From a virus (taxonomy: Duplodnaviria > Heunggongvirae > Uroviricota > Caudoviricetes), in IMG/VR virus record IMGVR_UViG_2565956633_000002: a stretch of DNA of 23,481 nucleotides; one strand, 5' to 3'. The notes below the pieces were generated by a model. It saw only the letters and a program-made list of their open reading frames with translations. It made no database searches and had not been told where the DNA came from. Both the position numbers and the translations under genes were made by a program. Positions 1,285-18,172 of this stretch are shown here, piece by piece (positions within the stretch are counted from its first letter, which is position 1; every line of letters begins with the position of its first letter).

Positions 1285-1310
1285 AAAAAAAAGGCGGCCT
1301 AATGGCCGCC
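1285..1310 (-). terminator. intrinsic terminator-like hairpin plus U8 in the ref leader, directly abutting the ref ATG
   Basis: Minus-strand RNA reads GGCGGCC-AUUA-GGCCGCC followed by UUUUUUUU, then GCCAU and the AUG. It is a 7-bp GC stem with a 4-nt loop, and there is no Shine-Dalgarno between the U-run and the start. Confidence 0.55.
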
Positions 1311-1394: not shown

Positions 1395-1500
1395 GGTAGA
1401 TATTTTGTTTCTCGCGAATCACATTTTTTCACTTCAGTACCTGTGTGCTATACTCCTTCTTGATTGATTGGATGCGGAATACAAACCCGCTCTTTTGTGC

Positions 1501-1528
1501 AGCCTGGCTCCTTGCCAGGCTTTTTTTT
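1501..1528 (+). terminator. rho-independent terminator, plus strand
   Basis: AGCCTGGC-TCCTT-GCCAGGCT is a perfect 8-bp stem with a 5-nt loop, followed by T8 (1521-1528). No plus-strand gene lies upstream, so it probably ends a short plus-strand RNA. Confidence 0.6.
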
Positions 1529-1838
1529 ATTTCATCATGGAAGCTGTTAACGCTTTGGACCTTGCTGAACTGATTGAAAGGGCATTGTTTACCTTACCCA
1601 GGAGTTCGCCAAATTCCCCCATCACTCTAGTAAGCCCGCGCCGCGCTTCCTCCTCCGTTGCATTCATCACAAAATGTTCAGCACTCCGCATGCTTTTAAC
1701 GGGGAACGCAACAGATATCGAGTCGATATCAGGCATCCTATCGCTCAACTTTACGGTGACAATGACAGATGGCGACAGAATATTAGTGCTTACAGACAGC
1801 ACTACATATTTTCCGTCGATGTTGAAATCCTTTCTCAT
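1527..1838 (-). CDS. hypothetical protein, 103 aa, between cre and ref
   Basis: ORF with ATG at 1838 and a C1-type operator just upstream. Product MRKDFNIDGKYVVLSV... is not recognised. The Shine-Dalgarno spacing is short (GGTGG, 3 nt, ATG). Confidence 0.45.
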   Translation of the reverse strand: MRKDFNIDGKYVVLSVSTNILSPSVIVTVKLSDRMPDIDSISVAFPVKSMRSAEHFVMNATEEEARRGLTRVMGEFGELLGKVNNALSISSARSKALTASMMK

Positions 1839-1854
1839 ATGCCACCATAAATAT

Positions 1855-1871
1855 CAAAGAATTAGAGCAAT
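1855..1871 (-). promoter_or_regulatory. C1 operator
   Basis: Minus strand reads ATTGCTCTAATTCTTTG (13/17 to consensus). It lies between the cre stop and the 103-codon ORF. Confidence 0.55.
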
Positions 1872-1888
1872 CATTTACGCGTTAATGG

Positions 1889-2920
1889 CTAATTGCCATC
1901 TTCCAGCAGGCGCACCATTGCCCCTGTTTCACTATCCAGGTTACGGATATAGTTCATGACAATATTTACGTTGGTCCAGCCACCAGCTTGCATGATCTCC
2001 GGTATTGAAACTCCGGCACGGGCCATATCTCGCGCGGCTCCGACACGGGCACTGTGTCCAGACCAGGCCAGGTACCTCTGTCCAGAGTCATCCTTAGCCC
2101 CGTAAATCAATCGGTGAGTTGCTTCAAAAATCCCTTCTAGGGCGCGAGTTGATAGCTGGCTGGTGGGTGATGGCGAGGCAACACCATTTTTTCTGACCCG
2201 GCAAAACAGGTAGTTATTCGGATCATCAGCCACACCAGAGACAGAAATCCATCGCTCGACCAGTTTAGTTACCCCCAGGCTAAGTGCCTTCTCTACACCT
2301 GCGGTGCTAACCAGCGTTTTCGTTCTGCCAATATGGATTAACATTCTCCCACCGTCAGTACGTGAGATATCTTTAACCCTGATCCTGGCAATTTCGGCTA
2401 TACGTAACAGGGTGTTATAAGCAATCCCCAGAAATGCCAGATTACGTATATCCTGGCAGCGATCGCTATTTTCCATGAGTGAACGAACCTGGTCGAAATC
2501 AGTGCGTTCGAACGCTAGTGCCTGTTTTGCACGTTCACCGGCATCAACGTTTTCTTTTCGGATCCGCCGCATAACCAGTGAAACAGCATTGCTATCACTT
2601 GGTCGCGGCAGCCCGGACCGACGATGAAGCATGTTTAGCTGGCCCAAATGTTGCTGGATAGTTTTTACTGCCAGACCGCGCGCCTGAAGATATAGAAGAT
2701 AATCGCGAACATCTTCAGGTTCTGCGGGAAACCATTTCCGGTTATTCAACTTGCACCATGCCGCCCACGACCGGCAAACGGACAGAAGCATTTTCCAGGT
2801 ATGCTCAGAAAACGCCTGGCGATCCCTGAACATGTCCATCAGGTTCTTGCGAACCTCATCACTCGTTGCATCGACCGGTAATGCAGGCAAATTTTGGTGT
2901 ACGGTCAGTAAATTGGACAT
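1889..2920 (-). CDS. cre: Cre site-specific tyrosine recombinase, 343 aa
   Basis: Translation MSNLLTVHQNLPALPVDATSDEVRKNLMDMFRDRQAFSEHTWKMLLSVCRSWAAWCKLNNRKWFP...RLLEDGN is Cre. The DNA is near-identical to the P1 cre sequence I know from vectors. Differences I can see: ASPSPT where P1 has AAPSAT, and a C-terminal N where P1 has D. Confidence 0.97.
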   Translation of the reverse strand: MSNLLTVHQNLPALPVDATSDEVRKNLMDMFRDRQAFSEHTWKMLLSVCRSWAAWCKLNNRKWFPAEPEDVRDYLLYLQARGLAVKTIQQHLGQLNMLHRRSGLPRPSDSNAVSLVMRRIRKENVDAGERAKQALAFERTDFDQVRSLMENSDRCQDIRNLAFLGIAYNTLLRIAEIARIRVKDISRTDGGRMLIHIGRTKTLVSTAGVEKALSLGVTKLVERWISVSGVADDPNNYLFCRVRKNGVASPSPTSQLSTRALEGIFEATHRLIYGAKDDSGQRYLAWSGHSARVGAARDMARAGVSIPEIMQAGGWTNVNIVMNYIRNLDSETGAMVRLLEDGN

Positions 2921-2927
2921 TTAACAC

Positions 2928-3149
2928 TCAGATAATGGTTTTAAGTAAAGTGTACAGGATCGGCTCTGCCTTTACCTGTTTATGGTTCTCGTCATAGAAA
3001 CGCCAGCGACCGCGCGTGCGTTCTATTTTCTCTTCACCGCGCGATAATGACAGTTGGCAACTATCACGATCAAACCCTTTTGCCCGCCAGTAACCACGGT
3101 TTTTCTCAAGCTCAAGATGAGTGGACACTTTAGCAGCTGAATATCCCAT
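2928..3149 (-). CDS. hypothetical protein, 73 aa, immediately upstream of cre
   Basis: ATG at 3149 is preceded by GAGGTG then AAAA. The stop lies 8 bp before the cre ATG. Product MGYSAAKVSTHLELEKNRGYWRAKGF... is not recognised. Confidence 0.45.
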   Translation of the reverse strand: MGYSAAKVSTHLELEKNRGYWRAKGFDRDSCQLSLSRGEEKIERTRGRWRFYDENHKQVKAEPILYTLLKTII

Positions 3150-3246
3150 TTTTCACCTCTGATTGATTGGTGGTGCTAAGTGCGCTACGCGAAATCTGGA
3201 GTACTAACACTGCCAACATTTCGCAGATTTTACGTAGCGCAACCTT

Positions 3247-3319
3247 GATCAAATGATCAAGTGATCACTATTTGACCTGATAAGGTATTGAACTGTATGG
3301 ATTTACAGGTGAATTGATC
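3247..3319. promoter_or_regulatory. cluster of four Dam (GATC) sites in the cre upstream region
   Basis: GATC at 3247, 3255, 3263 and 3316, within the palindromes TTGATCAAATGATCAA and AGTGATCACT. From memory, the P1 cre promoter region is reported to be methylation-regulated. Confidence 0.4.
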
Positions 3320-3379
3320 ATGTTCAATAACCCTTAAGGGTCTGAAGAGGAGTTTACGTCCAGCTGCGCATAAAAATCA

Positions 3380-3396
3380 AGAATTATTAGAGCAAT
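3380..3396 (-). promoter_or_regulatory. C1 operator (Op99-like)
   Basis: Minus strand reads ATTGCTCTAATAATTC. Confidence 0.65.
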
Positions 3397-3462
3397 AAAT
3401 TTTGAGAGAAAAATCCCACTCCACCAGCCAAAAACTGGATTGTTTTTCATAGTTGTTTGACA

Positions 3463-3479
3463 ATTGCTCTAATAAATTA
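3463..3479 (+). promoter_or_regulatory. C1 operator (Op99-like), upstream of coi-c1
   Basis: ATTGCTCTAATAAATTA, 16/17 to consensus. Confidence 0.7.
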
Positions 3480-3717
3480 TAGTTTTGCCGCCGTTTCGTA
3501 ATACGACTTTGGATTCACTATTTAATGTGTCTTCAGCGTTGTAGAGCGGCTCAGAAGGAAATGAGCAAACAGGGAAACCTTATACAACGGCATTACAGCT
3601 ATGCATTGCTCATCTTACACACAGCGCAATGTTGTTAGATTACCCCAGCATGGATCATGGGTGAAACAGTAGGTCAGAGCTTCAGGCTCTGTGTTGTCAA
3701 TACAGTGAGGCATAATT

Positions 3718-3927
3718 ATGGCTTTCATTCCACCAACCATCGACGACGTTAGACATTGCTCTAACGCTTTATCTGTAGACCCCGCCGAAACCGACGCTGC
3801 CCGCGCCATTGCTGAACACTACTCAAAGATATCCAATCAGGAGTACCGCATCACCCAAGACGACCTGGATGATCTCACTGACACAATCGAATATCTCATG
3901 GCCACTAACCAGCCAGACTCACAATAA
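3718..3927 (+). CDS. coi: Coi, C1 inactivator, 69 aa
   Basis: 69-codon ORF directly upstream of c1 with Shine-Dalgarno GTGAGG. The size and position are those of P1 coi. Confidence 0.8.
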   Translation: MAFIPPTIDDVRHCSNALSVDPAETDAARAIAEHYSKISNQEYRITQDDLDDLTDTIEYLMATNQPDSQ

Positions 3928-3928
3928 A

Positions 3929-3945
3929 TGCACTAATAAATCTAT
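3929..3945 (+). promoter_or_regulatory. weak C1-operator-like site between coi and c1
   Basis: TGCACTAATAAATCTAT, with the core CTAATAAAT conserved. A near-copy occurs at 23058-23074. Confidence 0.3.
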
Positions 3946-4037
3946 TATTTTCGTTGGATCCTTCTATAATGGTGGCCAACAACTCCCAGTGTAATCCGCT
4001 GTGAGTTGTTGGCCATGTCAATTCTGGAGGAGGATCA

Positions 4038-4889
4038 ATGATAAATTATGTCTACGGCGAACAACTGTACCAGGAGTTCGTCAGCTTCAGGGATCTCTTT
4101 CTAAAAAAAGCTGTTGCACGCGCCCAACACGTTGATGCCGCCAGCGACGGTCGTCCTGTTCGCCCGGTTGTCGTTCTGCCGTTCAAAGAAACGGACAGCA
4201 TTCAGGCTGAAATTGATAAATGGACTTTAATGGCGCGGGAACTGGAACAGTACCCAGACCTCAATATCCCAAAGACTATTTTATATCCAGTGCCTAACAT
4301 CCTTCGCGGTGTGCGTAAGGTTACGACTTATCAGACAGAAGCTGTGAACAGCGTCAACATGACCGCTGGCCGCATTATTCATCTGATTGATAAGGACATT
4401 CGCATCCAGAAAAGCGCGGGGATCAATGAGCACAGTGCGAAATACATAGAGAACCTGGAAGCAACAAAAGAGCTAATGAAGCAGTACCCGGAGGATGAAA
4501 AATTCCGTATGCGTGTACACGGCTTTAGCGAAACAATGCTGCGCGTCCACTACATTTCCAGTAGCCCTAACTACAATGATGGTAAATCAGTTAGTTACCA
4601 TGTGCCGCTGTGTGGTGTGTTTATCTGCGATGAAACTCTCCGTGATGGAATCATCATCAACGGTGAATTCGAGAAAGCAAAATTTAGCCTTTATGACTCT
4701 ATAGAACCGATCATCTGCGACCGCTGGCCGCAGGCAAAAATATATCGCCTGGCAGATATTGAAAATGTAAAAAAACAAATTGCCATCACTCGCGAAGAGA
4801 AAAAGGTCAAATCAGCCGCATCAGTTACGCGCAGCCGTAACACTAAGAAGGGGCAGCCAGTAAACGACAACCCCGAAAGCGCGCAATAA
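4038..4889 (+). CDS. c1: C1 repressor of lysis (immC), 283 aa
   Basis: Translation MINYVYGEQLYQEFVSFRDLFLKKAVARAQHVDAASDGRPVRPVVVLPFKETDSIQAEIDKW... matches P1 C1 in sequence and length. Strong Shine-Dalgarno GGAGGAGG. Confidence 0.95.
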   Translation: MINYVYGEQLYQEFVSFRDLFLKKAVARAQHVDAASDGRPVRPVVVLPFKETDSIQAEIDKWTLMARELEQYPDLNIPKTILYPVPNILRGVRKVTTYQTEAVNSVNMTAGRIIHLIDKDIRIQKSAGINEHSAKYIENLEATKELMKQYPEDEKFRMRVHGFSETMLRVHYISSSPNYNDGKSVSYHVPLCGVFICDETLRDGIIINGEFEKAKFSLYDSIEPIICDRWPQAKIYRLADIENVKKQIAITREEKKVKSAASVTRSRNTKKGQPVNDNPESAQ

Positions 4890-4892
4890 ATT

Positions 4893-4914
4893 ATGCCCGG
4901 CATCAACCGGGCAT
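4893..4914. terminator. bidirectional terminator-like hairpin between the convergent c1 and ant genes
   Basis: ATGCCCGG-CATCAA-CCGGGCAT, an 8-bp stem with A/T-rich flanks on both sides. Confidence 0.45.
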
Positions 4915-4921
4915 TCTTCCA

Positions 4922-6040
4922 TTATTCAGCTGCCACCGGTTTTAACAAGCCAGCATCGAGCAGTTTACGCGTCAACCACTGCTGGCCTTTACCCGTTAAT
5001 TGAGGCGTCAACCGTATCTGGTAGCCATCTTCATCATCCAGCACCACTTCTTTCACCGTGAAATACCCCGCGTTGATGTACTGCTGGAACGGCACATTTT
5101 TACGTCCACCGGACGCTATCAGGATGCCGTTCTCCCGTAACCAGACAAACAGCGCGTTTTGCTTAAGTCCAACAACCTTTGCAAAATTCCCAATCAGGAT
5201 CCCTTTAGCTACTGATACCCGGTCGGCAAAATCGACTTTAGGAGCGGCGGCCACCAGCTGCTGATTTAGCTGGTGGGCTTTCTGTTCCAGAAGTTGCTTT
5301 TGTTCAGCCAGTTCGGCAGCCAGGCGTAGGGCTTCAGGAAGCGTCTGGGGGATTGCGATCGGTTGCTGTTCTTTTTGTCGGAAGTAGCTGTCTTCCAGTT
5401 TTTCAAAGAATGCCCATGCCTGATCGGTTTCGAGCATTTTAGCGTGGCGGGCTGCGCCGCGTTCTGTCCAGAGGGTGAGTGAGCGAACATTGCGAGCAAT
5501 TTTTACAGAGTAGTTTAAAGCTACTCTGTGCTTCAACTCGCGCAATGATTCTCCTTCAACTTTGAAAAAGTGCTTCCCTTCAACAAAGCGTACTTTGTTC
5601 TCATGATGATTTTGGCGAATACGGATTGTTTCTGTCCCATACCCTCTAGCAAGAGTCTCGGTTGTCACTACACGCACTCCCTGCCATTCCAGAACGGGAA
5701 TTTCATCAGACTGATTCTGAACAACCACCAGCTCCGATTCCTGAACTGAAGGTGCATGAATTTTTTCTGATTTAACGTTAGTTGCTTTCATTCTGTGTGC
5801 CTCCTTGCGTGCTTCGGCTGCGACGGTTGCGTAATTCAGATGACCCTGTTCGAGCAGGTATTCGCGAATATCAGACAGCAGGATACGGTGAACCGCGTTC
5901 TTGTCCTTTCTCCGGTAAAGTTGTTTAGTGATCATGAAGTAGTTGGCTATAACACTGGGAATATCCCTGGTGCTGATACAGGCAGTGTGCTGTTCAATTG
6001 CCTCGATCATCTCTTCACGGGTGACTAATGACGTTCTCAT
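4922..6040 (-). CDS. ant: antirepressor Ant1 (372 aa) with in-frame internal start for Ant2 (ATG at 5790, 289 aa); ORF6N/Bro-N-like and KilA-C-like regions
   Basis: 372-codon ORF translationally coupled to the upstream 73-codon ORF (ATGA overlap at 6037-6040). A perfect internal Shine-Dalgarno AAGGAGG sits 8 nt before Met84. The predicted 41 kDa and 32 kDa products fit P1 Ant1/Ant2. The C-terminal region looks like a KilA-C antirepressor domain. Confidence 0.7.
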   Translation of the reverse strand: MRTSLVTREEMIEAIEQHTACISTRDIPSVIANYFMITKQLYRRKDKNAVHRILLSDIREYLLEQGHLNYATVAAEARKEAHRMKATNVKSEKIHAPSVQESELVVVQNQSDEIPVLEWQGVRVVTTETLARGYGTETIRIRQNHHENKVRFVEGKHFFKVEGESLRELKHRVALNYSVKIARNVRSLTLWTERGAARHAKMLETDQAWAFFEKLEDSYFRQKEQQPIAIPQTLPEALRLAAELAEQKQLLEQKAHQLNQQLVAAAPKVDFADRVSVAKGILIGNFAKVVGLKQNALFVWLRENGILIASGGRKNVPFQQYINAGYFTVKEVVLDDEDGYQIRLTPQLTGKGQQWLTRKLLDAGLLKPVAAE

Positions 6041-6258
6041 AGCCCCTCCTGAACAGAAGCGTTAACAGGGAGGCACCAGTAACTGAGAGAATTGCGTGAA
6101 TCAGTGGAAAAACGGGCAGAGAAAATACATGGGGCGTCAGGAAGCTGAGAGCGGGCCTCATCTTCTGTTGGTGCAATAACGAAGTGATAGTGACGTTTTT
6201 GGCAGGAGTAAAAGCGCCAGATAAATTCAGGATGAGTTGGGGTAGGGATAGTAGCCAT
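6037..6258 (-). CDS. icd: Icd-like protein, 73 aa, translationally coupled to ant
   Basis: ATG at 6258 is preceded by Shine-Dalgarno AAGGAGG then a 7-nt spacer. Product is MATIPTPTHPEFIWRFYSCQKRHYHFVIAPTEDEARSQLP... The 73-aa size and the icd-ant coupling mirror P1 immI. I do not remember the P1 Icd sequence, so the identity is structural only. Confidence 0.55.
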   Translation of the reverse strand: MATIPTPTHPEFIWRFYSCQKRHYHFVIAPTEDEARSQLPDAPCIFSARFSTDSRNSLSYWCLPVNASVQEGL

Positions 6259-6423
6259 ATTGGCAGCCTCCTTAGACGTTGGTATGTAACCACCGCAGAA
6301 GAGACCAATCTTGCTGGCGGTGGACTGTACGGAGTTGGCCTTACTGGCGTCCAAGGTAACCAGCCTACCCGAAGGTAGCCCCATACAGCCCACCATTGTA
6401 GAGGTGTGCGTGTACGCCGATAC

Positions 6424-6447
6424 AAAAAAAAGACGCGAGCGGCGTCT
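6424..6447 (-). terminator. rho-independent terminator, minus strand
   Basis: Minus RNA reads AGACGC-CGCTC-GCGTCT followed by U8 (plus-strand A-run at 6424-6431). Confidence 0.55.
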
Positions 6448-6570
6448 GTATCGCCTTAGACTTAAGCGGGAGGCCAATCCCGGCACCCGTTTTAATGAGG
6501 TGCCTGATAAGCATAAACCGAAAATGCCTCAAGGCGCAAGAGGTCAGGTTCAATGTAACATCGGTAGCTA
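6448..6570 (-). ncRNA. candidate c4-like antisense regulatory RNA (boundaries approximate)
   Basis: This is the transcribed region between a C1-operator promoter and the terminator. It contains AUUGGCCUCC, which is complementary to the icd ribosome-binding site GGAGGCUGCCAAU, and a GUCUAAGG copy also present at that site. The arrangement follows the P1 c4-icd-ant paradigm. Confidence 0.3.
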
Positions 6571-6577
6571 AAAAACA

Positions 6578-6594
6578 CAATTTATTAGAGCAAA
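6578..6594 (-). promoter_or_regulatory. C1 operator (Op51-like) at the head of the immI-like module
   Basis: Minus strand reads TTTGCTCTAATAAATTG, 15/17 to consensus. Confidence 0.65.
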
Positions 6595-6597
6595 TGT

Positions 6598-8082
6598 TCA
6601 TTCATTAAGCCATGCCAGAGCTTCATCAACCTGCGCTTCGTCTTCGACGCTAAGCACTTCATCCTGGGGAACATAATCCGCCAGCATAGCGAAACAATAT
6701 GTATCCCAATGGTCTGGTGAGTGCAGGTTGAGTTTTTTCTTCATATCCTCCTTACTCATCACCTTCCATTGACCTGCGGAGTTAATCCCTACAGGGATTT
6801 TCGACGCTTCCTCAATAGTTTCATTACCCTTATCCAGTCTCATACGACCAGATTTTACGGCCTCTGCGGCTTGAACGTTGGCATAAGCACGTTTATCAAA
6901 GTACAGGCTCTTATCTTCACGGCTATGCATCTTTTTACCCCAGCGTATACGCTGTACGGTAATACCATAATACTCGTACATCAGATCCGCTGTTGCTTTA
7001 CCCAGGCCATCGCCATCTATCGCTATGGTGATATTGGGGAATCGCTCAGGATTACATTCTGCGAAAATTTTGGCGGCAAGCTGCGTTTCTGTAACGTCTG
7101 TGTATTCCAGCATTCGATAGTTGATTACACGGCGTTTATTTCGCTGGCCGGACACCATCATGATATTGATAACTGACTTATCCCGTCCCGTACCACCAGC
7201 AACGTCCACACATGCAAGCCAGCCCCATCCTTTGGCAATCTTAACTTTCCGCCGCGTTGCACGTTCAACCTCATCACGTCCAAGAAGGAAGCCGTCCTGT
7301 GATTTAGGGAATAGGCCGCGCACCTTAATCATGTACATAGGGTTATCACGCCCGCCGTACTCCGCCAGCTTCATTTTGATAAATTCTGGCGTTACCAGCG
7401 GTGATTCCTCACTGTTAAGCGTGATCGCCGTATAAACGCCATCTGGGTTACCAGGACGCTTGGCCAGTTTATGGTGAGTATCGTAGAAATAGCCGCTTGG
7501 GCGTGTAGGCTGTGACAGTAATAAGATGCGGTTATCCTGTCCGGTAAGAGCACCGGTGATGATACCGAAAGCTCTATCACTGACACCGGAGGCTTCATCG
7601 ATAATATACAGAAGATGATCTGCGTGTTCACCGGCGAGAGCTTCTTCACTTCCCAGACGAAAGCCCTTCGGTACTACAGTCCATACACCTTTACCAGTAA
7701 CCTCATAGAAAGCGGTTTCTGTCAGAACAAAATAATCAGCAAGCCATGGAAAACGGCTGGTGGCAGTAGCCCAGTTTATCTTGATGTACTTGAATATACC
7801 GGTCATTACCTGCTGAATTTTGTTCGCAACGATAATGGCACGGGCACCTGGATACATGATTATGAACAACATGATCATGATAGAAGTCATGTCTGATTTC
7901 CCGGTACCGTGACCAGACGAAACAGATGTCTTGCTACCCTGTTCCTGCACAGACTCAATAATCAGATCCTGCTGCCAGGTAGGTGTTTTGCCGAACAAAA
8001 CATCAGCGGCAGCAATCCAGTCATAACGATATAGCGCCACCAGCTCGCGCCAACGTGGATCCGTTACGCAACTTCTGGCCAT
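6598..8082 (-). CDS. pacB: PacB, pacase / terminase large subunit, 494 aa
   Basis: Terminase-type ATPase with Walker A GHGTGKS and a C-terminal nuclease region. The 494-aa length and the one-base overlap with the upstream gene (TAATG) match P1 pacB. Confidence 0.9.
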
Positions 8083-9275
8083 TAATCATCATCCCCGTAT
8101 AGCTTGCGGGTAACTTCTTCGTCTTCCTCCTCGTCTTCGTCCAGGTCTTGTTCCAGCCATGGGTCGTTTGATACACCTTCAGTATCAACATCTCCATAAC
8201 CGCCTGTATCAACGATATCGGCGATTTCTTCCCTACGCTGCTCAATCCACAATGCGGCATCGGCGCGGCGGTTGGCGGCCCGTTCTCGCGCAACTTTGTC
8301 CAGATCTTCAAGAGAAGGGCCACCGACGGCTGTTTGCCTTTCCTCATCATCGGTATTGGTCTTAGGAGCACGCAGATCGGCTTTGATTTGCTCCAGCATC
8401 AGGGGCGGTACTTTCCCTCCATGCGCCTCGATGAATTCAGCTGCCTCCAGCACTGACCAGTTGTTTTCACGCTTTCGTTCGTATGCCAGCTTAACAATGC
8501 CAGCTTGCCCCATAGACAAAGCGTGCTTTTCCGCCTCCCGGCTTTCTTTTCGATAGTTATTCCGGATGCTGTAAATGGTGTTGATCAGGCTGCTTATCTG
8601 CGCGGAACAGCTGTTTAGCATGCTCGCGATACGGTATTCAGGCGGAGTTCCTTCATCATCGTCTTTTTGCTGATCGCGCATTTCCTGAACCAAGCGAATA
8701 CACGTATCCCTGGCGTTCTCCAGCATAAGGAGATGAGAGAGAGACTTTTCCAGAAGAGTGGTTTCCAGAACATCAGCCCCGGACCGACGCAACATAGCGC
8801 GCGCGGCCTTCCGCGCTTCAACGTTATCTATCAGGTAATCGCCAGCTTCGAATTCAAAGCGTTCACCATCATCATCCAGGGTGTCGCGTTCCAGGCGATC
8901 ACGTAAGGTCCGGTGGGCGCGGGTGATCACGTCATGATCATCAGAACGATCATTTATGCGCTTATTCTGGCGCTTCGCGTTCTCGACTGCGGCACTGACA
9001 ACAGCATTAACTCTTTGTTTTTCAGCCATTTCAGCCACAATGTGATCACCTGCACGTTGATCATTAGCGTGATCAATGATCATGCTTTTTAGTGGTTTTC
9101 TGACAGGCTTATTTGGCTTACGGCTGTCCGCTGTTCCGGTGTCTTCTTTGAATGCACGGAGATAACGACGTGCGGTGTTTGGGTTGAGATTAAACTCGGC
9201 GGCATATTGTGCGATGGTGTAACCACCATCTCGCGCCAGGCGAGCAAAATTCTTCTTGTGATCGTCCCAGGTCAC
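8082..9275 (-). CDS. pacA: PacA, pacase small subunit, 397 aa (GTG start)
   Basis: GTG start with Shine-Dalgarno AAGGAAG. The product has an N-terminal helix-turn-helix-like region and an acidic tail, and the pac site lies inside the ORF as in P1. Confidence 0.88.
8896..9083. other. pac packaging site: two clusters of TGATCA/GATC hexamers flanking the presumed cut region
   Basis: TGATCA at 9043, 9058, 9070 and 9078 on one side. On the other side, GATC-containing hexamers at 8896, 8924, 8935 and 8948. This is the known 4 + 3 Dam-site architecture of P1 pac. Confidence 0.65.
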
Positions 9276-9361
9276 TTATGCTTCCTTTCGTATAAAACTC
9301 TTTTTGACGCGAGGGTAACGAAAGTCACATGTCAAAAGGCCCGGAACGGGCAAGCAATCAA

Positions 9362-9814
9362 TCAGATACGTGCGGATGTGGCATTACCGTAATGACGGTG
9401 CTGACGGACCACCTTATTGAAAAGTTGACGCGCCATCACCCAAGGCTGGTGCTCCCGGCGTTCCTTTTCGTCCTGCGTCATATAGAGTTCGTTCTGGAGT
9501 TTTTCATCAAACCGGCGCGGAGCGCGGCTGCGGCGAAAGAATTCAGGATTCAGAGAGTGGATCTGAAATCTACGTGGGCGTGTACTGTCATCAATCAAAA
9601 CAGACGAATACTTAGACACAGCGATAGCCTTTAAGCGCAGATAAACATCGCGCTTATCGACATCCAGATGCGGGTATTCCTTTTCAAGAATTGCTGCGAG
9701 TTCTTTCGCTGATAGAAGAGATTTAGTGCGGATCATGTAATCCGCAATCTCGTACGATGTTATTCGTGAGTGATTTATTTCCATGAAGTGGCGTCCCTGC
9801 CAGTTAAGTAACAT
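9362..9814 (-). CDS. hypothetical protein, 150 aa, in the position of lpa (late promoter activator) upstream of pacA
   Basis: ATG at 9814 with Shine-Dalgarno AGGTGA, and tandem C1 operators immediately upstream. The protein is not recognised; the assignment is positional only. Confidence 0.5.
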   Translation of the reverse strand: MLLNWQGRHFMEINHSRITSYEIADYMIRTKSLLSAKELAAILEKEYPHLDVDKRDVYLRLKAIAVSKYSSVLIDDSTRPRRFQIHSLNPEFFRRSRAPRRFDEKLQNELYMTQDEKERREHQPWVMARQLFNKVVRQHRHYGNATSARI

Positions 9815-9871
9815 CCTGTCACCTACTGATTAGCCCATGTCAACTAATCAACGTGGAATATAATACCCTCG

Positions 9872-9901
9872 ATTAAAGAAATAGCAATACATTAGAGCAA
9901 T
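9872..9901 (-). promoter_or_regulatory. tandem C1 operators (Op88-like)
   Basis: Minus strand reads ATTGCTCTAATGTATTGCTATTTCTTTAAT. Confidence 0.6.
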
Positions 9902-9902
9902 T

Positions 9903-10946
9903 TTATCTAACGCTCGACGAGTGACTTGTGATAGCGCCGACTCCAAGCGCGTAATCAAAGAACAATCGTTGATGCATCGCCAGCCTACCGTGCGTCTTCT
10001 CCCAATTATCGCGGTCACGCTCAATATCACGCTGGCATGACTGGCACAGAGGAATAGCATAAATGTCATGCGCGCATAATCGACTATGACGAACGATATA
10101 AGGCGTAATGTGAGCGCCAGCTCCCGCAGCTCCACAGCCACAGCATGGACGGGAAGCCACAAAGTCCATGTACTCGGGCAATTTTAGCGATTGAAGTTTT
10201 GGTATTTTGAAATGCGCCATACCTGGGTCGGAGTCAACATCCACAGGGCATACTTTTGCACGCATCGGCGCGGCGCGTTCTTCCATCATCTGAACATATG
10301 CTGTAGCGCGATCGTCATACGGGCGAATATCCGCCTCTTTCAGAGGTCCGCTATCCTGCGGAGTAGCCTTCATCTTATTTATTGATATGCGGCAGACTTC
10401 TTCCGGCATCAGGTGCATCATGTTGCGCATGAAAGCCCACCAGCACAGTTCCTGAATACTTAAATCATGGCCATCTGAAAGCCCCATTTCCTGACGGGCG
10501 ACATCCAGTATCCAGTTAACGCGATTATTATGCAGCGTTTCTTTCAGCTCATTAAAACCACGCATCCGGTAATGGTTATCGTGATGCCAGCACAGCAACA
10601 CCGCGCTATTGTCTCGTTCAGTGTGGACAATATGGTTGTCACACCAACTACGATCTGCGGCCTGGCATCGCCCCTCTTTCCTGCGCAACCACGCCACCAG
10701 CGCGTCAATTCCACCAATACGACGAAACAGCTCATCGCTGTTAAAAAACGGCTGCAACGCCTCATTTGTTGCCATGGTTTGCTCGGAAACAACGAGGCCG
10801 TCGTCCATGTGCTCGATTAACTCACGCGGCACCGGCTCCATAATAAATTTACGGCCAGCCTCCACCAGCTTTCTGACCTCCTGATCCACTTTGAATGTGG
10901 CGACGCCAAGCTCTTTTTGTACAAAGGGAGTAATTACGGCTTTCAC
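9903..10946 (-). CDS. hypothetical Cys/His-rich protein, 347 aa (P1 pdcB position)
   Basis: GTG start with Shine-Dalgarno AAGGTG. The product has several CxxC and HxxH clusters ([20 protein letters not shown]) and sits two genes downstream of doc. Confidence 0.65.
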
Positions 10947-10973
10947 ATCACACCTTTAATCACTGATTGGGCT

Positions 10974-11153
10974 TTATCTGCTGCCCGGCATTCTCTGTTT
11001 AAGCACAACCATTTCCTGACGGCATAACACAGCAATAGCGGTCCTGACACCAACTTGCTTACCAACCAGGTAATGCTTTACCTCGCGGCGACTCACGCCA
11101 TCAAGAAGCATCTTTAACGCTTCACGGGACAACTTGTTGTATTTACGTGCCAT
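10974..11153 (-). CDS. small basic protein, 59 aa (P1 pdcA position)
   Basis: ATG at 11153, 4 bp after the doc stop. Product MARKYNKLSREALKMLLDGVSRREVKHYL... looks like a possible helix-turn-helix protein. Confidence 0.5.
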   Translation of the reverse strand: MARKYNKLSREALKMLLDGVSRREVKHYLVGKQVGVRTAIAVLCRQEMVVLKQRMPGSR

Positions 11154-11157
11154 TAAT

Positions 11158-11538
11158 CTACTCCGCAGAACCATACAATCTACGTAACGTGTCGGCGACA
11201 GAAGATACAGATATCTCGCCAGTCGCAGCGCCTACAGTAAGGTCTGCCAGTTCAGGTGAATCAAATACCTGCACCCCGTTACGGCGTAGAAATAACAGCG
11301 CACTGTTTAGCGCGGTACGCTTATTGGCATCATTGAATATATGCCCTCTCGCTGTAGCCACCAGGTAGGTGGCGGAGACTTCGAAAAGGTCGGTGATCTC
11401 TTCGTAGGCAACTCTGGCCTGAACTCTCCCGATAATGGCCTCTGCCCTACCCGGATCTGACATTCCCGGCAGGCCGCCGTAGCGGTTTATATTCGCATCA
11501 TGAAGCGCAATAAGTTCTTCCGGTGATATATGCCTCAT
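11158..11538 (-). CDS. doc: Doc toxin (Fic/Doc family), 126 aa
   Basis: Translation [75 protein letters not shown]... is essentially P1 Doc. Confidence 0.95.
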
Positions 11539-11759
11539 TATCGGTTAACCAGTTCCTTGTTGGTGGAGTCCAGGGTGTCAAACAGGGATGCAAATTCAGC
11601 ATCCAGCGCCGCTTTTTTGTAGGCTTCGAAAGTAGCCTTGCTGACAATTACTGCTGGCTCACGGCCTCTGCGGGTGATTTCAACCTCTTCCCCGGCCTCA
11701 ACATTGTTGAGCACTTCAGAAAGTTTGCCGCGCGCGGTACGGAAGTTAATGGATTGCAT
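11538..11759 (-). CDS. phd: Phd antitoxin, 73 aa
   Basis: Translation [73 protein letters not shown] is P1 Phd. Its stop overlaps the doc start (TAATG). Confidence 0.95.
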
Positions 11760-11935
11760 AAACACCTCATGTACTCGTTATGTGTACGCAATCATAAACC
11801 TCACAGGCATAAAGCACCAGCACTTTGCGGCTTAACAAACCTCTAGGCAGGTCATTCGTAGCCTAATGTCCGAACTGCTAAAGCATCCAAGTTGCTGTAG
11901 AATCACCGCCAATTACATAAGCCTGAAATAAGTGG

Positions 11936-13498
11936 ATGAAAATGACAAGTATTCAACAACGTGCAGAGCTTCATCGTCAAATCTGGCAAATTGCTAACGA
12001 TGTCAGGGGTTCGGTCGATGGATGGGATTTTAAGCAATACGTTCTGGGCGCACTTTTCTACCGTTTTATCAGCGAAAATTTTTCCAGCTATATTGAAGCC
12101 GGTGATGACAGCATCTGTTATGCGAAACTGGATGACAGCGTAATTACTGATGACATTAAAGACGATGCCATCAAAACCAAAGGCTACTTCATCTACCCAA
12201 GTCAGCTTTTCTGCAACGTAGCTGCGAAAGCAAATACCAATGACAGACTGAACGCAGATTTAAACAGCATCTTCGTTGCTATCGAAAGCTCTGCTTACGG
12301 TTACCCTTCAGAAGCTGACATCAAAGGTTTGTTTGCTGATTTCGATACCACCAGTAACCGCCTGGGTAACACCGTTAAAGATAAAAATGCCCGCCTGGCT
12401 GCGGTTCTGAAAGGGGTTGAAGGGTTAAAACTTGGTGACTTCAACGAACATCAGATTGACCTGTTCGGTGATGCCTATGAGTTCCTGATTTCTAACTATG
12501 CGGCAAATGCCGGTAAGTCAGGCGGTGAGTTCTTTACACCGCAGCACGTCTCTAAGCTGATTGCACAACTGGCAATGCACGGCCAGACCCACGTTAACAA
12601 AATCTACGACCCGGCAGCAGGTTCCGGTTCGCTGTTGTTGCAGGCTAAAAAACAGTTTGATGACCATATCATCGAAGAAGGCTTTTTTGGTCAGGAGATC
12701 AACCATACGACCTATAACCTGGCGCGTATGAACATGTTTTTGCACAACATCAACTACGACAAGTTTGATATCAAGCTGGGTAATACACTGACTGAGCCGC
12801 ACTTCAGAGATGAAAAACCGTTTGATGCCATCGTTTCTAACCCGCCGTATTCGGTGAAATGGATTGGCAGCGATGACCCGACGCTGATTAACGATGAACG
12901 TTTTGCCCCGGCTGGCGTTCTGGCCCCCAAATCCAAAGCTGACTTTGCGTTTGTATTACATGCGCTGAACTATCTTTCTGCCAAAGGTCGTGCTGCGATT
13001 GTCTGCTTCCCGGGCATTTTTTACCGTGGCGGCGCGGAGCAGAAAATCCGTCAGTATCTGGTTGACAATAACTATGTCGAAACCGTGATTTCACTGGCAC
13101 CGAACCTGTTCTTTGGCACCACCATTGCCGTAAATATTCTGGTGCTGTCTAAACATAAAACGGATACCAAAGTTCAGTTTATTGACGCCAGCGAACTGTT
13201 CAAAAAAGAGACTAACAACAACATCCTGACCGATGCCCATATCGAAAAAATTATGCAGGTATTTTCCAGCAAGGAAGATGTTGCCCATCTGGCAAAATCT
13301 GTCGCGTTTGAGGCCGTTGTCGCGAATGACTATAACCTGTCAGTGAGCAGCTATGTAGAAGTGAAAGATAACCGCGAAACTATCGATATTGCTGAGCTAA
13401 ATGCTGAGCTGAAAACCACGGTCAGCAAAATCGACCAGTTGCGTAAAGATATTGATGCGATTGTGGCTGAAATTGAAGGCTGCGAGGTGCAGAAATGA
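11936..13498 (+). CDS. hsdM: Type I restriction-modification methyltransferase subunit HsdM, Type IC (EcoR124 family), 520 aa
   Basis: N6-adenine methyltransferase motifs are present: [10 protein letters not shown] (AdoMet binding) and VSNPPYS (motif IV). The 520-aa length and N-terminus [25 protein letters not shown] fit EcoR124-type HsdM. Confidence 0.93.
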
Positions 13499-14706
13499 GC
13501 GAGTTGAGTTATCTGGAAAAATTGCTGGATGGGGTTGAAGTTGAGTGGTTGCCATTGGGGGAAATAACCAAATATGAACAGCCAACAAAGTATTTGGTAA
13601 AAGCAAAAGATTATCACGACACATATACCATACCGGTTCTTACTGCCGGAAAAACATTTATTCTTGGATACACAAATGAGACTCATGGTATTTATCAGGC
13701 ATCAAAGGCACCTGTAATAATTTTTGATGATTTCACCACCGCTAATAAATGGGTGGATTTTGACTTTAAGGCAAAATCATCGGCCATGAAAATGGTTACA
13801 TCATGTGATGATAATAAAACCTTACTGAAATATGTTTACTATTGGCTCAATACATTACCAAGTGAATTCGCAGAGGGAGACCATAAACGCCAATGGATTA
13901 GTAATTATTCTCAAAAAAAAATCCCAATCCCCTGCCCGGATAATCCGGAAAAATCCCTTGCCATCCAGTCTGAAATCGTTCGGATTCTGGATAAATTTAC
14001 TGCACTTACCGCTGAGCTTACCGCTGAGCTTAACATGCGTAAAAAACAGTACAACTATTATCGCGACCAGTTGTTGAGTTTTAAAGAGGGTGAGGTTGAG
14101 TGGAAGACTTTGGAGGAGGTGCTAGTAGATAAATTTTGGATTATGCCCGCAACTCCGAAGTTTGATGACAATGGTGAAATTCCATATGTCACTTCAAAGA
14201 ATATTAGTGGTGGGAACATCGATTTTGAAAGAGTTAAGCATATTTCCCGGGACGATTTTTTGAGCATCTCCAAAAATAGACCGATCTTGAAAGGTGACTT
14301 TCTTATAAGCATGATTGGTACTATTGGTGAGATTGCTCGAGTAAAATGTCTCGATCCTGATTTTTACGGTCAAAACATGTACCTAATCAGGTTGAATGAG
14401 GAATTACTTCACCCTAGATATTTTCTGCATTTCTTCGACTCACCAAGAATGAAATTTTACTTTAAGTCAGTAAAAAACAATTCAGGGCAAGGTTATCTTA
14501 AAGCAAATAACATTGATGGTTTATCTATTCCTTTACCATCGATTGATGAGCAACAAAAAATTGCCTTTATCCTCGATAAGTTCGACACCCTGACCAACTC
14601 CATCACCGAAGGTCTCCCGCGTGAAATCGAGTTGCGCCAGAAACAATACGAGTACTACCGTGATTTACTGTTCAGTTTCCCGAAACCTGAAACTGTCAGT
14701 AATTAA
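13495..14706 (+). CDS. hsdS: Type I specificity subunit HsdS, Type IC, 403 aa, two target-recognition domains
   Basis: ATGA overlap with hsdM. The central conserved region carries the TAEL-TAEL repeat typical of Type IC HsdS, and there are duplicated conserved motifs (QKQYEYYRD / KKQYNYYRD). Confidence 0.9.
14005..14028 (+). repeat. tandem 12-bp repeat (CTTACCGCTGAG x2) encoding TAEL-TAEL in the hsdS central region
   Basis: Exact tandem duplication read directly from the sequence. In the EcoR124I / EcoR124II paradigm, two versus three copies of this repeat change the spacer length of the recognition site. Confidence 0.85.
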
Positions 14707-14828
14707 TTGACCATTGCTACCGACCGGGCCACCTTAACACCCGGTCAGTATATAGGCTATTTTTTTACACGCTGGAAGTCACCATTAACACCCTTCCGGC
14801 CCTTGCCAGACGGCACAAAGGATGCGCT

Positions 14829-17800
14829 ATGACTCATCAGACACACACCATTGCTGAATCCAATAACTTTATCGTTCTTGATAAGTACATCAAAGCTGAG
14901 CAAACAGGCGACAGCTATCAGAGTGAATCGGACCTGGAACGGGAACTGATTCAGGACCTGCGAAATCAGGGCTATGAATTTATACCCGTAAAATCACAGT
15001 CGGCGATGCTGGCCAACGTTCGGGAACAGCTTCAGAACCTCAATGGTGTGGTGTTTAATGACAGCGAATGGCGGCGTTTCACGGAGCAGTATCTGGACAA
15101 CCCGAGTGATGGCATTCTGGATAAGACCCGTAAAATCCATATCGACTATATTTGCGACTTTATTTTTGATGACGAGCGTCTTGAGAACATCTATTTGATA
15201 GATAAAAAGAATCTCATGCGCAATAAGGTGCAGATTATCCAGCAGTTTGAACAGACGGGTTCTCATGCTAACCGTTATGACGTCACGATCCTGGTTAATG
15301 GTTTACCGCTGGTGCAAATCGAACTAAAAAAACGCGGGGTGGCGATTCGTGAGGCTTTCAACCAGATACATCGTTACAGTAAAGAGAGTTTTAACAGCGA
15401 AAATTCCCTGTTTAAGTATCTGCAACTGTTTGTCATTTCTAACGGCACCGATACCCGTTATTTTGCCAACACGACAAAGCGCGATAAAAACAGTTTTGAC
15501 TTCACCATGAATTGGGCGAAATCAGACAACACGCTGATTAAAGACCTCAAAGACTTTACCGCTACCTTTTTCCAGAAACATACTCTGCTGAATGTTCTGG
15601 TGAACTACAGCGTTTTTGACAGTAGTCAGACGCTACTGGTGATGCGACCGTACCAGATTGCCGCCACCGAACGAATCTTATGGAAAATCAACAGCTCCTA
15701 TAAAGCGAAAAACTGGTCTAATCCCGAAAGCGGTGGCTTTATCTGGCACACTACCGGTTCTGGTAAAACACTGACCAGCTTTAAAGCCGCGCGTCTGGCA
15801 ACAGAACTGGACTTTATTGATAAAGTCTTCTTCGTGGTCGACAGGAAAGACCTCGATTACCAGACCATGAAGGAATACCAGCGTTTTTCGCCAGACAGCG
15901 TCAACGGCTCGGAAAATACCGCAGGTCTTAAACGAAATCTGGATAAGGACGATAACAAAATTATCGTCACCACTATTCAGAAACTTAATAACCTGATGAA
16001 AGCAGAAAGCGACCTGCCTGTATACAATCAGCAAGTGGTGTTTATATTTGATGAATGCCACCGCAGCCAGTTTGGAGAAGCGCAGAAAAACCTGAAGAAG
16101 AAATTCAAACGCTATTATCAGTTTGGTTTTACCGGCACACCTATTTTCCCGGAAAACGCTTTAGGCTCAGAAACGACCGCCAGCGTATTTGGCCGTGAAT
16201 TGCATTCGTATGTGATTACCGATGCGATTCGAGATGAAAAAGTGCTTAAATTCAAGGTGGACTACAACGATGTGCGGCCACAGTTTAAGTCTTTAGAGAC
16301 AGAAACCGACGAGAAAAAACTGAGTGCGGCTGAAAATCAGCAGGCGTTTCTTCATCCCATGCGTATACAGGAAATTACGCAATATATTCTGAATAACTTC
16401 CGCCAGAAGACCCACCGTACTTTCCCAGGTTCCAAAGGCTTTAATGCCATGCTGGCAGTGAGTAGCGTGGATGCCGCGAAAGCCTATTACGCGACGTTTA
16501 AACGGTTACAAGAGGAAGCAGCTAATAAATCGGCTACCTATAAACCGCTGCGTGTTGCGACAATCTTCTCCTTTGCCGCCAATGAAGAACAAAATGCCAT
16601 TGGTGAAATTTCCGATGAAACTTTTGATACCAGCGCAATGGACAGCAGTGCTAAAGAGTTTCTGGACGCTGCAATTCGTGAATATAACAGCCATTTTAAA
16701 ACTAACTTTAGCACCGACAGTAACGGTTTTCAGAACTACTATCGTGATTTAGCCCAGCGGGTTAAAAATCAGGATATCGATCTGCTAATTGTCGTGGGGA
16801 TGTTTTTAACCGGCTTCGATGCTCCAACATTGAACACGCTATTCGTCGATAAAAACTTGCGTTTTCACGGCCTGATGCAGGCATTTTCCCGCACCAACCG
16901 TATTTATGATGCAACTAAAACCTTCGGTAATATCGTCACTTTCCGGGATCTGGAACGCTCAACTATTGATGCCATAACGCTGTTTGGTGACAAAAACACC
17001 AAAAATGTGGTGTTAGAAAAGAGTTATACAGAGTATATGGAAGGCTTTACTGATGCTGCTACAGGTGAAGCTAAACGCGGCTTCATGACAGTAGTTTCAG
17101 AACTGGAACAACGGTTCCCTGACCCTGCCAGTATTGAAAGTGAAAAAGAGAAGAAAGACTTCGTTAAACTGTTTGGCGAATACCTGCGTGCCGAGAACAT
17201 CCTGCAAAACTATGATGAATTTGCCACGCTAAAAGCCCTGCAACAAATCGATCTTAGCGATCCTGTTGCGGTAGAAAAATTCAAAGCAGAACATTATGTG
17301 GATGATGAAAAGTTCGCTGAATTGCAAACAATTCGTCTCCCTGCTGATCGCAAGATTCAGGATTATCGTTCTGCCTATAACGATATTCGCGACTGGCAGC
17401 GCCGTGAGAAAGAAGCTGAGAAAAAAGAGAAATCAACCACTGACTGGGATGACGTAGTTTTTGAGGTCGATTTGCTGAAGTCTCAGGAAATAAACCTGGA
17501 TTATATCCTTGGACTGATTTTCGAACACAACAGACAAAATAAAGGCAAGGGCGAAATGATCGAAGAGGTCAAACGCTTAATTCGTTCAAGCCTGGGGAAC
17601 CGAGCGAAAGAGGGCCTGGTGGTCGATTTTATTCAGCAAACGAACCTGGATGATTTACCAGATAAAGCCAGTATCATTGAGGCATTCTTTACGTTTGCTC
17701 AACGCGAACAGCAACGTGAAGCAGAAGCATTGATAAAAGAAGAAAATCTCAATGAAGAAGCAGCAAAACGCTATATTCGCACGTCTTTAAAACGCGAATA

Positions 17801-17945
17801 CGCCACCGAAAATGGCACAGAATTAAACGAAACATTACCAAAACTTAGTCCATTGAATCCGCAATATAAAACGAAAAAACAGGCAGTTTTCCAGAAAATC
17901 GTCTCGTTTATTGAGAAGTTTAAAGGCGTAGGCGGAAAAATATAG
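14829..17945 (+). CDS. hsdR: Type I restriction endonuclease subunit HsdR, Type IC, 1038 aa
   Basis: Superfamily 2 helicase motifs are present (Walker A TGSGKT, DEAH-box FDECHRSQ). The 1038-aa length matches EcoR124I HsdR as I recall it. Shine-Dalgarno AAGGA. Confidence 0.93.
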
Positions 17946-17962
17946 CCCAATTCGTGTTTTTC

Positions 17963-17990
17963 TTGCGGGTTCTTAATTAAACCCGCAAGA
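17963..17990. repeat. perfect 9-bp inverted repeat CTTGCGGGT / ACCCGCAAG around a TTAATTAA core, just after the hsdR stop
   Basis: Read directly from the sequence. There is no U-run after the stem in either transcript orientation, so it is not a classical terminator. It is a possible protein-binding site or island boundary. Confidence 0.5.
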
Positions 17991-18024
17991 GACCGTGGGG
18001 TTCCAAATGGCTAATATACTCCCC

Positions 18025-18111
18025 TTACCCATGCGCGACGATGCCGCCAAAAGTGATAGAGAACAGCCAGAAATAGATCGCGGTCATAATGATTTTGAAT
18101 ACCGTGTTCAT
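18025..18111 (-). CDS. small hydrophobic peptide, 28 aa, predicted single transmembrane helix
   Basis: ATG at 18111 is preceded by Shine-Dalgarno CAGGAG with a 7-nt spacer. Product is MNTVFKIIMTAIYFWLFSITFGGIVAHG. A C1-type operator lies about 85 bp upstream. It is convergent with hsdR. Confidence 0.4.
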   Translation of the reverse strand: MNTVFKIIMTAIYFWLFSITFGGIVAHG

Positions 18112-18140
18112 ATCTTCAGCTCCTGTGATTGATTGGATAT

Positions 18141-18172
18141 ATGCCGCGCCCCTTGCGGCATGTTTTTATTTT
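18141..18172 (+). terminator. rho-independent terminator, plus strand
   Basis: ATGCCGC-GCCCCTT-GCGGCAT followed by GTTTTTATTTT. Confidence 0.55.

Follow-up and report, generated by a model that had tools for sequence, protein, structure and literature searches.

The locus described here raises the question of why one 11-mer recurs at three separate places of a phage genome segment, and whether all three copies play the same part. The segment, hereafter the window, is the whole 23,481-nt stretch of the IMG/VR virus record IMGVR_UViG_2565956633_000002 and belongs to a P1-like phage-plasmid: it is 96-98% identical to Punavirus (P1-like phages), the P1 top strand corresponding to the minus strand of the window. 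An earlier note on this DNA had read the 11-mer as a shared translational operator in front of Shine-Dalgarno (SD) sequences, bound either by a trans-acting antisense RNA or by a protein. Our analysis suggests another role for one of the copies, which is best read as the gene of an antisense RNA and not as a third operator. It probably encodes a trans-acting small RNA (sRNA) of roughly 68 nt, whose 5′ seed would pair with the start regions of cra(-cre), of a 28-codon open reading frame (ORF; orf28) and of pmgS. This reading is based on the sequence architecture, the conservation, the complementarity and the positions of the complementary sites, all in silico; transcription of the locus, the RNA ends, the use of a chaperone and the sign of the regulation we infer.

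On the plus strand, TGATTGATTGG stands at 1461-1471 (site 1), 3160-3170 (site 2) and 18126-18136 (site 3), exactly as the earlier note had it (Table 1). Two further copies, matching at 10 of 11 positions, exist as well, each one base away from where they had been placed: CGATTGATTGG at 20024-20034 on the plus strand, which reads CCAATCAATCG on the minus strand and covers nt +21 to +31 of pmgS, and GCAATCAATCA at 9354-9364, in the opposite orientation. On the minus strand every exact copy had been said to run directly into an SD sequence. This is so to the letter at site 2, which reads CCAATCAATCA-GAGGTG-AAAA-ATG of cra; at site 3 the SD is real and the spacer is 8 nt rather than 7 (CCAATCAATCA-CAGGAG-8 nt-ATG of the 28-codon ORF), and at site 1 (CCAATCAATCA-AGAAGGAG) the SD-like run serves no ORF, with no ATG, GTG or TTG 5-9 nt past it. 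P1 itself carries the same three exact sites at 186-196, 1885-1895 and 84367-84377 with flanks 97-100% identical, so that P1 alone is uninformative on constraint.

Three exact copies had also been held very unlikely by chance in 23 kb, and this argument did not survive, since 61% of dinucleotide-preserving shuffles of the window hold some 11-mer at least three times (mean of 1.0 canonical 11-mer with at least three copies). In the real window, two other 11-mers outside the C1-operator family reach at least three copies, one of them with a Chi site. Within the P1 group the flanks are nearly as conserved as the motif, which makes conservation there weak evidence when taken alone. The comparison covered whole genomes and two outgroups, located via the C8 protein and then by BLAST: Cronobacter phage JK004, in which Cre is 80% and C8 51% identical, and the Salmonella plasmid pCFSAN058588. 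The P1 genome contains five copies of CCAATCAATC against 0.18 expected, JK004 six against about 0.2 (five of them exact 11-mers, against 0.04 expected) and pCFSAN058588 four against about 0.2. The copies lie on one strand, in non-coding sequence beside start codons, the pmgS copy itself being inside the coding sequence (CDS). The 10-mer families found at least three times in all three genomes comprise the motif, the C1 operator and Chi, plus a few further shared 10-mers. The motif is thus real and non-random, by virtue of its position (strand, start codons) and its recurrence across whole genomes and not of the count in a single window. The copy at 9354-9364 has no counterpart in JK004 or pCFSAN058588 and no plus-strand gene at its site; it is probably a chance match outside the system.

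Site 1 looks different when it is read on the plus strand. There the complement of the motif follows the extended -10 element TGcTATACT by 6 nt, at the predicted +1, and is itself followed by a small hairpin, the U-rich linker UCUUUUGUGC and AGCCTGGCtccttGCCAGGCT with a T8 tract. The corresponding region of P1 is about 1895-1828 of the bottom strand; it falls between c8 and ref, which are encoded on the other strand. Column counts over 54 unique P1-group sequences from IMG/VR showed no variation in the nine positions of the extended -10 element, whereas 11 of 14 columns vary in the spacer next to it, six of seven at the -35-like hexamer and four of six in the P1-group “SD” AGAAGG, which is the discriminator CCTTCT of the plus strand. 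Both stem arms of the terminator are invariant and its loop is variable. Across 78 P1-group loci the seed positions 1462-1470 are invariant, the two end positions varying once each. The constraint is also visible in P7, where the C8 protein is 85% identical and the sRNA region 100% identical over 115 of the 116 nt queried (99% of the query). Starting from 1461-1463, the predicted fold leaves the 5′ 9 nt unpaired, then forms the hairpin, the U-rich linker and the terminator, with a minimum free energy of -23.2 kcal/mol (z = -3.0). The plus-strand ORFs called mechanically near the terminator gave no family matches, and no plausible gene lies upstream of it. A search of Rfam over 1380-1580 gave no match at the gathering score, the best sub-threshold hit being SorX (22.6 bits, cut-off 46.6). 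In the curated records of P1 and P7 the locus carries no annotated feature, and sequence-string and topic searches of the literature returned no description of this RNA.

The outgroups carry the same arrangement. In both of them, downstream of the c8 module and on the strand opposite to the genes, we found TTGTGaTATACT-CATTCG-CGATTGATTGG, a hairpin, a linker ending in GTGC, AGCCCGGCgaaaGCTGGGCT and a T-rich tail. The extended -10 element is TGaTATACT in JK004 and pCFSAN058588, at the same 6-nt distance from the seed, and neither has a -35 element at the locus; the weak -35-like hexamer of the P1 group is probably dispensable. The 10 nt GATTGATTGG are identical in the P1 group, JK004, pCFSAN058588 and all metagenome copies. 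Hairpin 1 consists of three unrelated sequences in the three lineages, each of which folds, and the terminators (AGCCCGGCgaaaGCTGGGCT in the outgroups versus AGCCTGGCtccttGCCAGGCT) differ by a compensatory U-A to C-G change. RNAalifold on the three lineages recovered both helices, with three pairs changed on both sides. The SD-like run on the sense strand is absent in JK004 and pCFSAN058588 (CGCGAATGAG). Site 1 is read as an RNA gene because its SD-like run has no ORF, varies in the P1 group and is missing from both outgroups, and because the opposite strand offers an invariant extended -10 element, the motif complement at +1 and a terminator. In silico, the locus combines a predicted promoter and terminator of its own in the absence of an ORF, a conserved single-stranded seed in front of a remainder that drifts and keeps its structure, and complementarity to several start regions that is kept at their orthologs in three lineages. 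Scans of GTDB, IMG/VR and metagenomes for further lineages returned the same three only. The GTDB scan gave 12 matches, of which only the two in Escherichia contigs, which also carry loxP, look P1-like; ten more fell in unrelated taxa, close to the count that we estimated for chance. More distant Cra homologs of SSU5-like phage-plasmids were of no use here, as cra is translationally coupled to the upstream gene and leaves no leader to compare.

The idea of a trans-acting antisense RNA that targets the copies fared better at the other sites: in the mRNA sense, sites 2 and 3 and the pmgS copy lie between -25 and +31 of start codons, and they are kept in two further lineages, and only site 1 drops out as an operator. 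Retention of the motif at orthologous start sites was found for the cre-operon leader, orf28 and pmgS in P1, JK004 and pCFSAN058588. In the leader of cra (2928-3149), the gene before cre (1889-2920), all 11 columns of the motif are invariant in 79 loci and the predicted cofold interaction is -13.5 kcal/mol net of unfolding; the corresponding P1 segment, 163-243, scored -17.1 and is among the best sites of that genome. Ahead of the first gene of the cre operon, the exact motif is found at -26 to -16 in JK004 and at -20 to -10 in pCFSAN058588.

Site 3, in the leader of the 28-codon ORF, is downstream of the C1 operator Op88 and of PpmgT. The predicted interaction is -13.7 kcal/mol net of unfolding, with 13-14 contiguous pairs. 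The orf28 ortholog of JK004 has the exact motif at -22 to -12 and that of pCFSAN058588 has TCAATCAATCA, with a G.U pair retained. The natural variants CUAAUCAAUCA and CCAGUCAAUCA of site 3 also retain G.U pairing, a weak point, as most transitions in the motif would do likewise. The encoded hydrophobic product has no protein-family match and is absent from the curated P1 annotation; possible identities are a small membrane protein and a type I toxin-like peptide. A check for a type I toxin-antitoxin arrangement found the hydrophobic ORF conserved and a plus-strand terminator abutting it, with no promoter-like site on the plus strand. The possibility that site 3 encodes a second sRNA paralog was rejected, since the terminator there (18139-18163) is accompanied by no promoter-like site in the scan of the plus strand nearby.

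The most extensive pairing is predicted inside pmgS. Here GCACAAAA (20035-20042), complementary to the sRNA linker UUUUGUGC, directly precedes the motif, which gives 10 + 8 complementary nt and a free-energy difference (ddG) of -19.9 kcal/mol. A duplex scan with the first 24 nt was dominated by GC-rich matches to the sRNA’s own hairpin segment and was set aside in favour of cofold tiling with unfolding costs; this tiling covered both strands of the entire P1 genome and ranked pmgS first among the trans sites (-21 kcal/mol), with the cra leader in the top few. Both outgroup orthologs of pmgS have the exact motif at +21 to +31 although the neighbouring codons differ.

In P1, complementarity to the seed extends over 9 nt or more at eight sites, of which four (cra, orf28, pmgS, repA) are in sense between -25 and +31 of a start codon. 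At repA, which is outside the window, codons 2-4 (AUG-AAUCAAUCA, +4 to +12; P1 62620-62628, bottom strand) are complementary to nt 1-9 of the sRNA, and the predicted interaction is weak (ddG -6.6 kcal/mol). In JK004 all five exact 11-mers are in gene sense between -26 and +31 of start codons; besides the cre-operon, orf28 and pmgS sites, one overlaps the AUG of the ref ortholog and one is found at -24 to -14 of the gene that follows lxc. The remaining CCAATCAATC copy of this genome belongs to the sRNA locus. The plasmid pCFSAN058588 has the same four orthologous sites, one of them being TCAATCAATCA. As a separate observation, the hairpins before the motif in the leaders of orf28 and of the gene following lxc in JK004 (64780-64840 and 70400-70460) are alike, GGCCGCACGC-loop-GCGGCC, and the same is seen in the Salmonella plasmid, which suggests that hairpin and motif form a duplicated leader module.

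The mechanism that we propose is the following. The extended -10 promoter (TGnTATACT) would initiate 7-9 nt downstream, giving an RNA with the 5′ end (U)GAUUGAUUGG, a short hairpin and a U-rich linker, and ending at the Rho-independent terminator. The single-stranded seed would pair with CCAAUCAAUC(A) in the ribosome-binding window of several phage mRNAs, namely the cra-cre leader, the leader of the 28-codon ORF upstream of pmgT and codons 7-10 of pmgS, possibly also repA (+4 to +12) in P1 and the ref ortholog and the gene downstream of lxc in the relatives. Pairing would most likely block 30S binding and/or trigger decay, resulting in post-transcriptional repression. Circumstantial support comes from P1vir in a delta-hfq host, in which, according to a preprint, pmgS was over-expressed and its operon neighbour pmgR reduced (10.64898/2025.12.28.696737); the rise of pmgS fits repression of this gene.

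Several observations weigh against this proposal. In the same delta-hfq host cra, cre and pmgT go down (10.64898/2025.12.28.696737), and a simple Hfq-dependent repression of all targets is a misfit for that reason. The promoter is a consensus match only, shuffled sequence giving 0.7 promoter-like sites per 400 nt, and with a -35 element that is weak or absent its activity would depend on the extended -10 element. The AU-rich seed duplex reaches about -15 kcal/mol over its 11 bp, and with a longer query many unrelated sites score equally well. Read in sense, site 1 resembles the targets, with a hairpin and then the motif, a look possibly compatible with a common cis element bound by another factor. 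Finally, the searched collections hold only three lineages and the P1 group is 95-100% identical, so that the comparative power rests on two outgroups; our confidence is limited by this and by the in silico nature of all evidence for the sRNA. A much broader version of the proposal, which we regard as doubtful, would make the sRNA a master post-transcriptional regulator of plasmid-prophage maintenance acting through one 10-nt seed, with cra-cre (Cre-mediated dimer resolution), repA (plasmid replication, in P1), Ref (in JK004), the morphogenetic genes pmgS and pmgT and a possibly toxic 28-residue membrane peptide as targets; it may then underlie the genetically defined lysogeny-establishment function of c8 that maps next door.

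Among the competing explanations, the one that survives best, although we consider it unlikely, is that CCAAUCAAUCA, in most cases directly 3′ of a hairpin, serves as an operator on the RNA, where an RNA-binding protein of phage or host would repress or activate translation. Site 1 would be included, its plus-strand promoter and terminator being incidental or serving another purpose. Every sense-orientation copy, site 1 too, does stand 0-9 nt after a GC-rich hairpin; these hairpins, however, are unrelated in sequence and differently spaced, and the pmgS copy lies inside the coding sequence without one. A point in favour of a protein is that the 11th base, A, is kept in most targets, yet the 5′ base of the sRNA is U in P1 and C in JK004 and the Salmonella plasmid. 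The presence of a ProQ/FinO-family protein in pCFSAN058588 also counts for this explanation, but no candidate for the operator-binding protein was found, and the protein-binding site that the earlier note had offered as an alternative has no specific support. A protein operator also leaves unexplained that at site 1 the extended -10 element and the plus-strand terminator are invariant in three lineages and the SD-like run of the sense strand is not.

The ProQ/FinO-family RNA chaperone of pCFSAN058588 is encoded at 84602-85132, beside lysozyme and ssb genes. It may have a bearing on sRNA function in this phage family.

Less probable still is a factor-independent role of the motif as a translational enhancer or ribosome standby site: an unstructured, C/A-rich stretch ahead of the SD would favour the binding of 30S or S1, and would have arisen repeatedly or been spread by gene conversion. 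C/A-rich leader elements do enhance translation in enterobacteria, as known from work on GcvB targets, and the motif is free of G, C/A-rich and single-stranded between hairpin and SD at cra and orf28. Such an element would need a composition, not the exact identity of 10-11 nt across lineages with diverged flanks, and it would not be expected at +21 to +31 inside the pmgS ORF, over the AUG as in the JK004 ref copy or, as at site 1, without an ORF. The complementary transcription unit would also go unexplained.

That the motif is instead the target of the host sRNA OmrA is very unlikely. Nucleotides 10-18 of OmrA (AUUGAUUGG) are complementary to CCAAUCAAU, with 9 contiguous nt, or 11 at the cra site, and we verified this sequence in the galR-aas intergenic region of E. 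coli and in Rfam RF00079. The match falls outside the validated seed, since known OmrA/B targets need nt 2-10 (CCAGAGGUA) and pairing of the downstream segment is dispensable for cirA (PMC2588501). The target motif of the OmrA/B 5′ subzone is CUCUGG (PMC12692685), which does not occur next to the motif. Moreover, OmrB is mismatched at nt 16, nt 16-20 are in a stem of the Rfam consensus, a chance 9-mer match to some host sRNA is not rare, and the phage itself encodes a perfect complement. We therefore rejected OmrA as the trans factor. The 9-mer shared with the seed (window 1463-1471) may be a coincidence or a partial mimicry of the host sRNA.

A check for complementarity to known P1 small RNAs had been proposed; the C4 and IsrK-like RNAs of the window have at most 6 nt complementary to the motif and were dropped as trans factors. 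The C1 operator (ATTGCTCTAATAAATTT) is a separate k-mer family that shares at most ATTG with the motif, and comparison by eye with consensus sequences gave no match to IHF, Fur or DnaA sites. Lastly, that the copies are functionless chance repeats, as the shuffled windows and the conserved P1-group flanks by themselves would allow, is effectively refuted by their recurrence four to six times per genome in three lineages, the functional-looking copies being all in gene sense, beside start codons and at orthologous genes.

The candidate sRNA would work like the known 5′-seed sRNAs and translation-blocking phage RNAs, and yet it matches no curated family: covariance models of C4 (RF01695), isrK (RF01394) and OmrA-B (RF00079) gave no match at the locus at the gathering score. 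With OmrA/OmrB, RybB and the MicC type it would share a length of about 70-90 nt and an own promoter, a seed at or next to +1 that is conserved more than any other part, a hairpin and a U-rich stretch inside the molecule, a Rho-independent terminator that ends in a U tail, and a pairing of 9-11 nt near the SD and AUG or in the early codons of several mRNAs; like OmrA, it contains the 9-mer AUUGAUUGG. Unlike these enterobacterial sRNAs, it lies on a phage-plasmid and its predicted targets are the phage’s own genes. C4 of P1 and P7 (immI, RF01695) and IsrK are likewise regulatory RNAs of the P1 family, which block translation through short complementarity to a ribosome-binding region, and a C4/isrK-like pair is present in the window itself (6313-6503). 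According to its annotation, C4 is processed from the icd-ant target transcript and uses two short loop sequences, a′ and b′, whereas the candidate would be transcribed from its own, convergent gene and act on several dispersed targets through a single linear 5′ seed. DicF is a prophage sRNA that is processed from a longer transcript and targets host genes. It resembles the candidate as a short phage-borne RNA with a terminator that pairs at the start regions of several mRNAs and represses them, and differs in that the predicted regulon here is internal to the phage (the cre operon, pmgS, orf28/pmgT and perhaps repA).

The gene order of the window, from high to low coordinates, is pmgS, pap, hsdMSR, phd-doc, pdcAB, lpa, pacAB, a C4/isrK/icd/ant-like module, c1-coi, cra-cre, c8 and ref. 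The hsdM, hsdS and hsdR genes of a type I restriction-modification cassette (11936-17945, plus strand) take the place of P1 pmgT to humD, with the orf28 region on one side and phd-doc on the other. Identical junctions are noted in the P1 annotation for the EcoDXXI and R124/3 hsd loci. The hsdR-proximal part also occurs on IncF plasmids, cut off by IS1, and the partial IncF matches to the orf28 region, being IS1 truncations beside hsdR, were set aside as uninformative. Between pacB and c1 the window has a second immI-like module (4922-6600, minus strand), in which the C4 and isrK-like RNAs are accompanied by an icd-like ORF and an ORF of 372 aa resembling Ant/Roi; P1 has nothing at this position.

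The window precisely lacks loxP between coi/c1 and cra (about 3325-3340, minus strand): P1 reads CTTCAGACC-TAATAACTTCGTATAGCATACATTATACGAAGTTATA-TTAAGGG and the window CTTCAGACC-C-TTAAGGG, and a search of the window with up to three mismatches found no loxP. Both loxP arms are present in nearly all related loci, the closest phage included, and cre and cra of the window are intact. Chi (GCTGGTGG / CCACCAGC), present in the window at 1099, 2157 and 20874, is far commoner than expected throughout the genomes of P1, JK004 and pCFSAN058588, and it explains the other three-copy 11-mer of the window, CCCACCAGCCA. A strong terminator-like hairpin (GGCGGCCATTAGGCCGCC + T8; 1293-1310, minus strand) separates the ref start codon, which follows it directly, from the ref promoters and the C1 operator annotated at the matching P1 positions; we take it to be the published ref attenuator.

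Table 1. Positions in the window of the candidate sRNA gene, its predicted targets and other features of the text
Feature	Position	Strand	Remarks
Candidate trans-acting sRNA, about 66-69 nt	1461-1529	+	Predicted 5′ end 1461-1463; predicted 3′ end in U tract
-35-like hexamer TTTTCA, weak	1426-1431	+	Promoter scan: TTTTCA-17-TATACT, 9/12, TG before -10
Extended -10 TGcTATACT	1446-1454	+	No variable column in the P1 group
Seed UGAUUGAUUGG	1461-1471	+	Copy 1; core GAUUGAUUGG at 1462-1471
Rho-independent terminator AGCCTGGCtccttGCCAGGCT then T8	1501-1529	+	Terminator scan; 1501-1521 plus T8
Copy 2, predicted target in cra leader	3160-3170	-	-21 to -11 of cra AUG (3149); SD GAGGTG 3154-3159
Copy 3, predicted target in 28-codon ORF leader	18126-18136	-	-25 to -15; SD CAGGAG 18120-18125
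Predicted target inside pmgS	20024-20042	-	CDS 18792-20054; CCAATCAATCG at +21 to +31
28-codon hydrophobic ORF MNTVFKIIMTAIYFWLFSITFGGIVAHG	18025-18111	-	Conserved in P1, JK004 and pCFSAN058588
Hairpin beside copy 3	18139-18163	+	Scores as terminator; on minus strand 5′ stem-loop of PpmgT transcript; context only
Opposite-orientation 10/11 copy GCAATCAATCA	9354-9364	+	At lpa stop codon; also in P1
C4 antisense RNA	6313-6400	-	Part of second immI-like module
isrK-like RNA	6426-6503	-	Part of second immI-like module

P1 is among the most studied temperate phages, and Cre-lox is used universally as a genetic tool. Neither an RNA gene between c8 and ref nor a shared operator at cra, pmgS and the pmgT leader is found in the curated records of P1 and P7, in Rfam or in the searchable literature. 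The case also carries a more general lesson, namely that one copy of a repeated motif can be the regulator’s own gene and not a further target. If the candidate sRNA is real, cre and the C1-controlled operons would have a further, post-transcriptional layer of control, and P1-like phage-plasmids from Escherichia, Salmonella and Cronobacter would have in common a small sRNA regulon made up of phage genes. Some of the Hfq-dependent effects on P1 development would also find a directly testable explanation.

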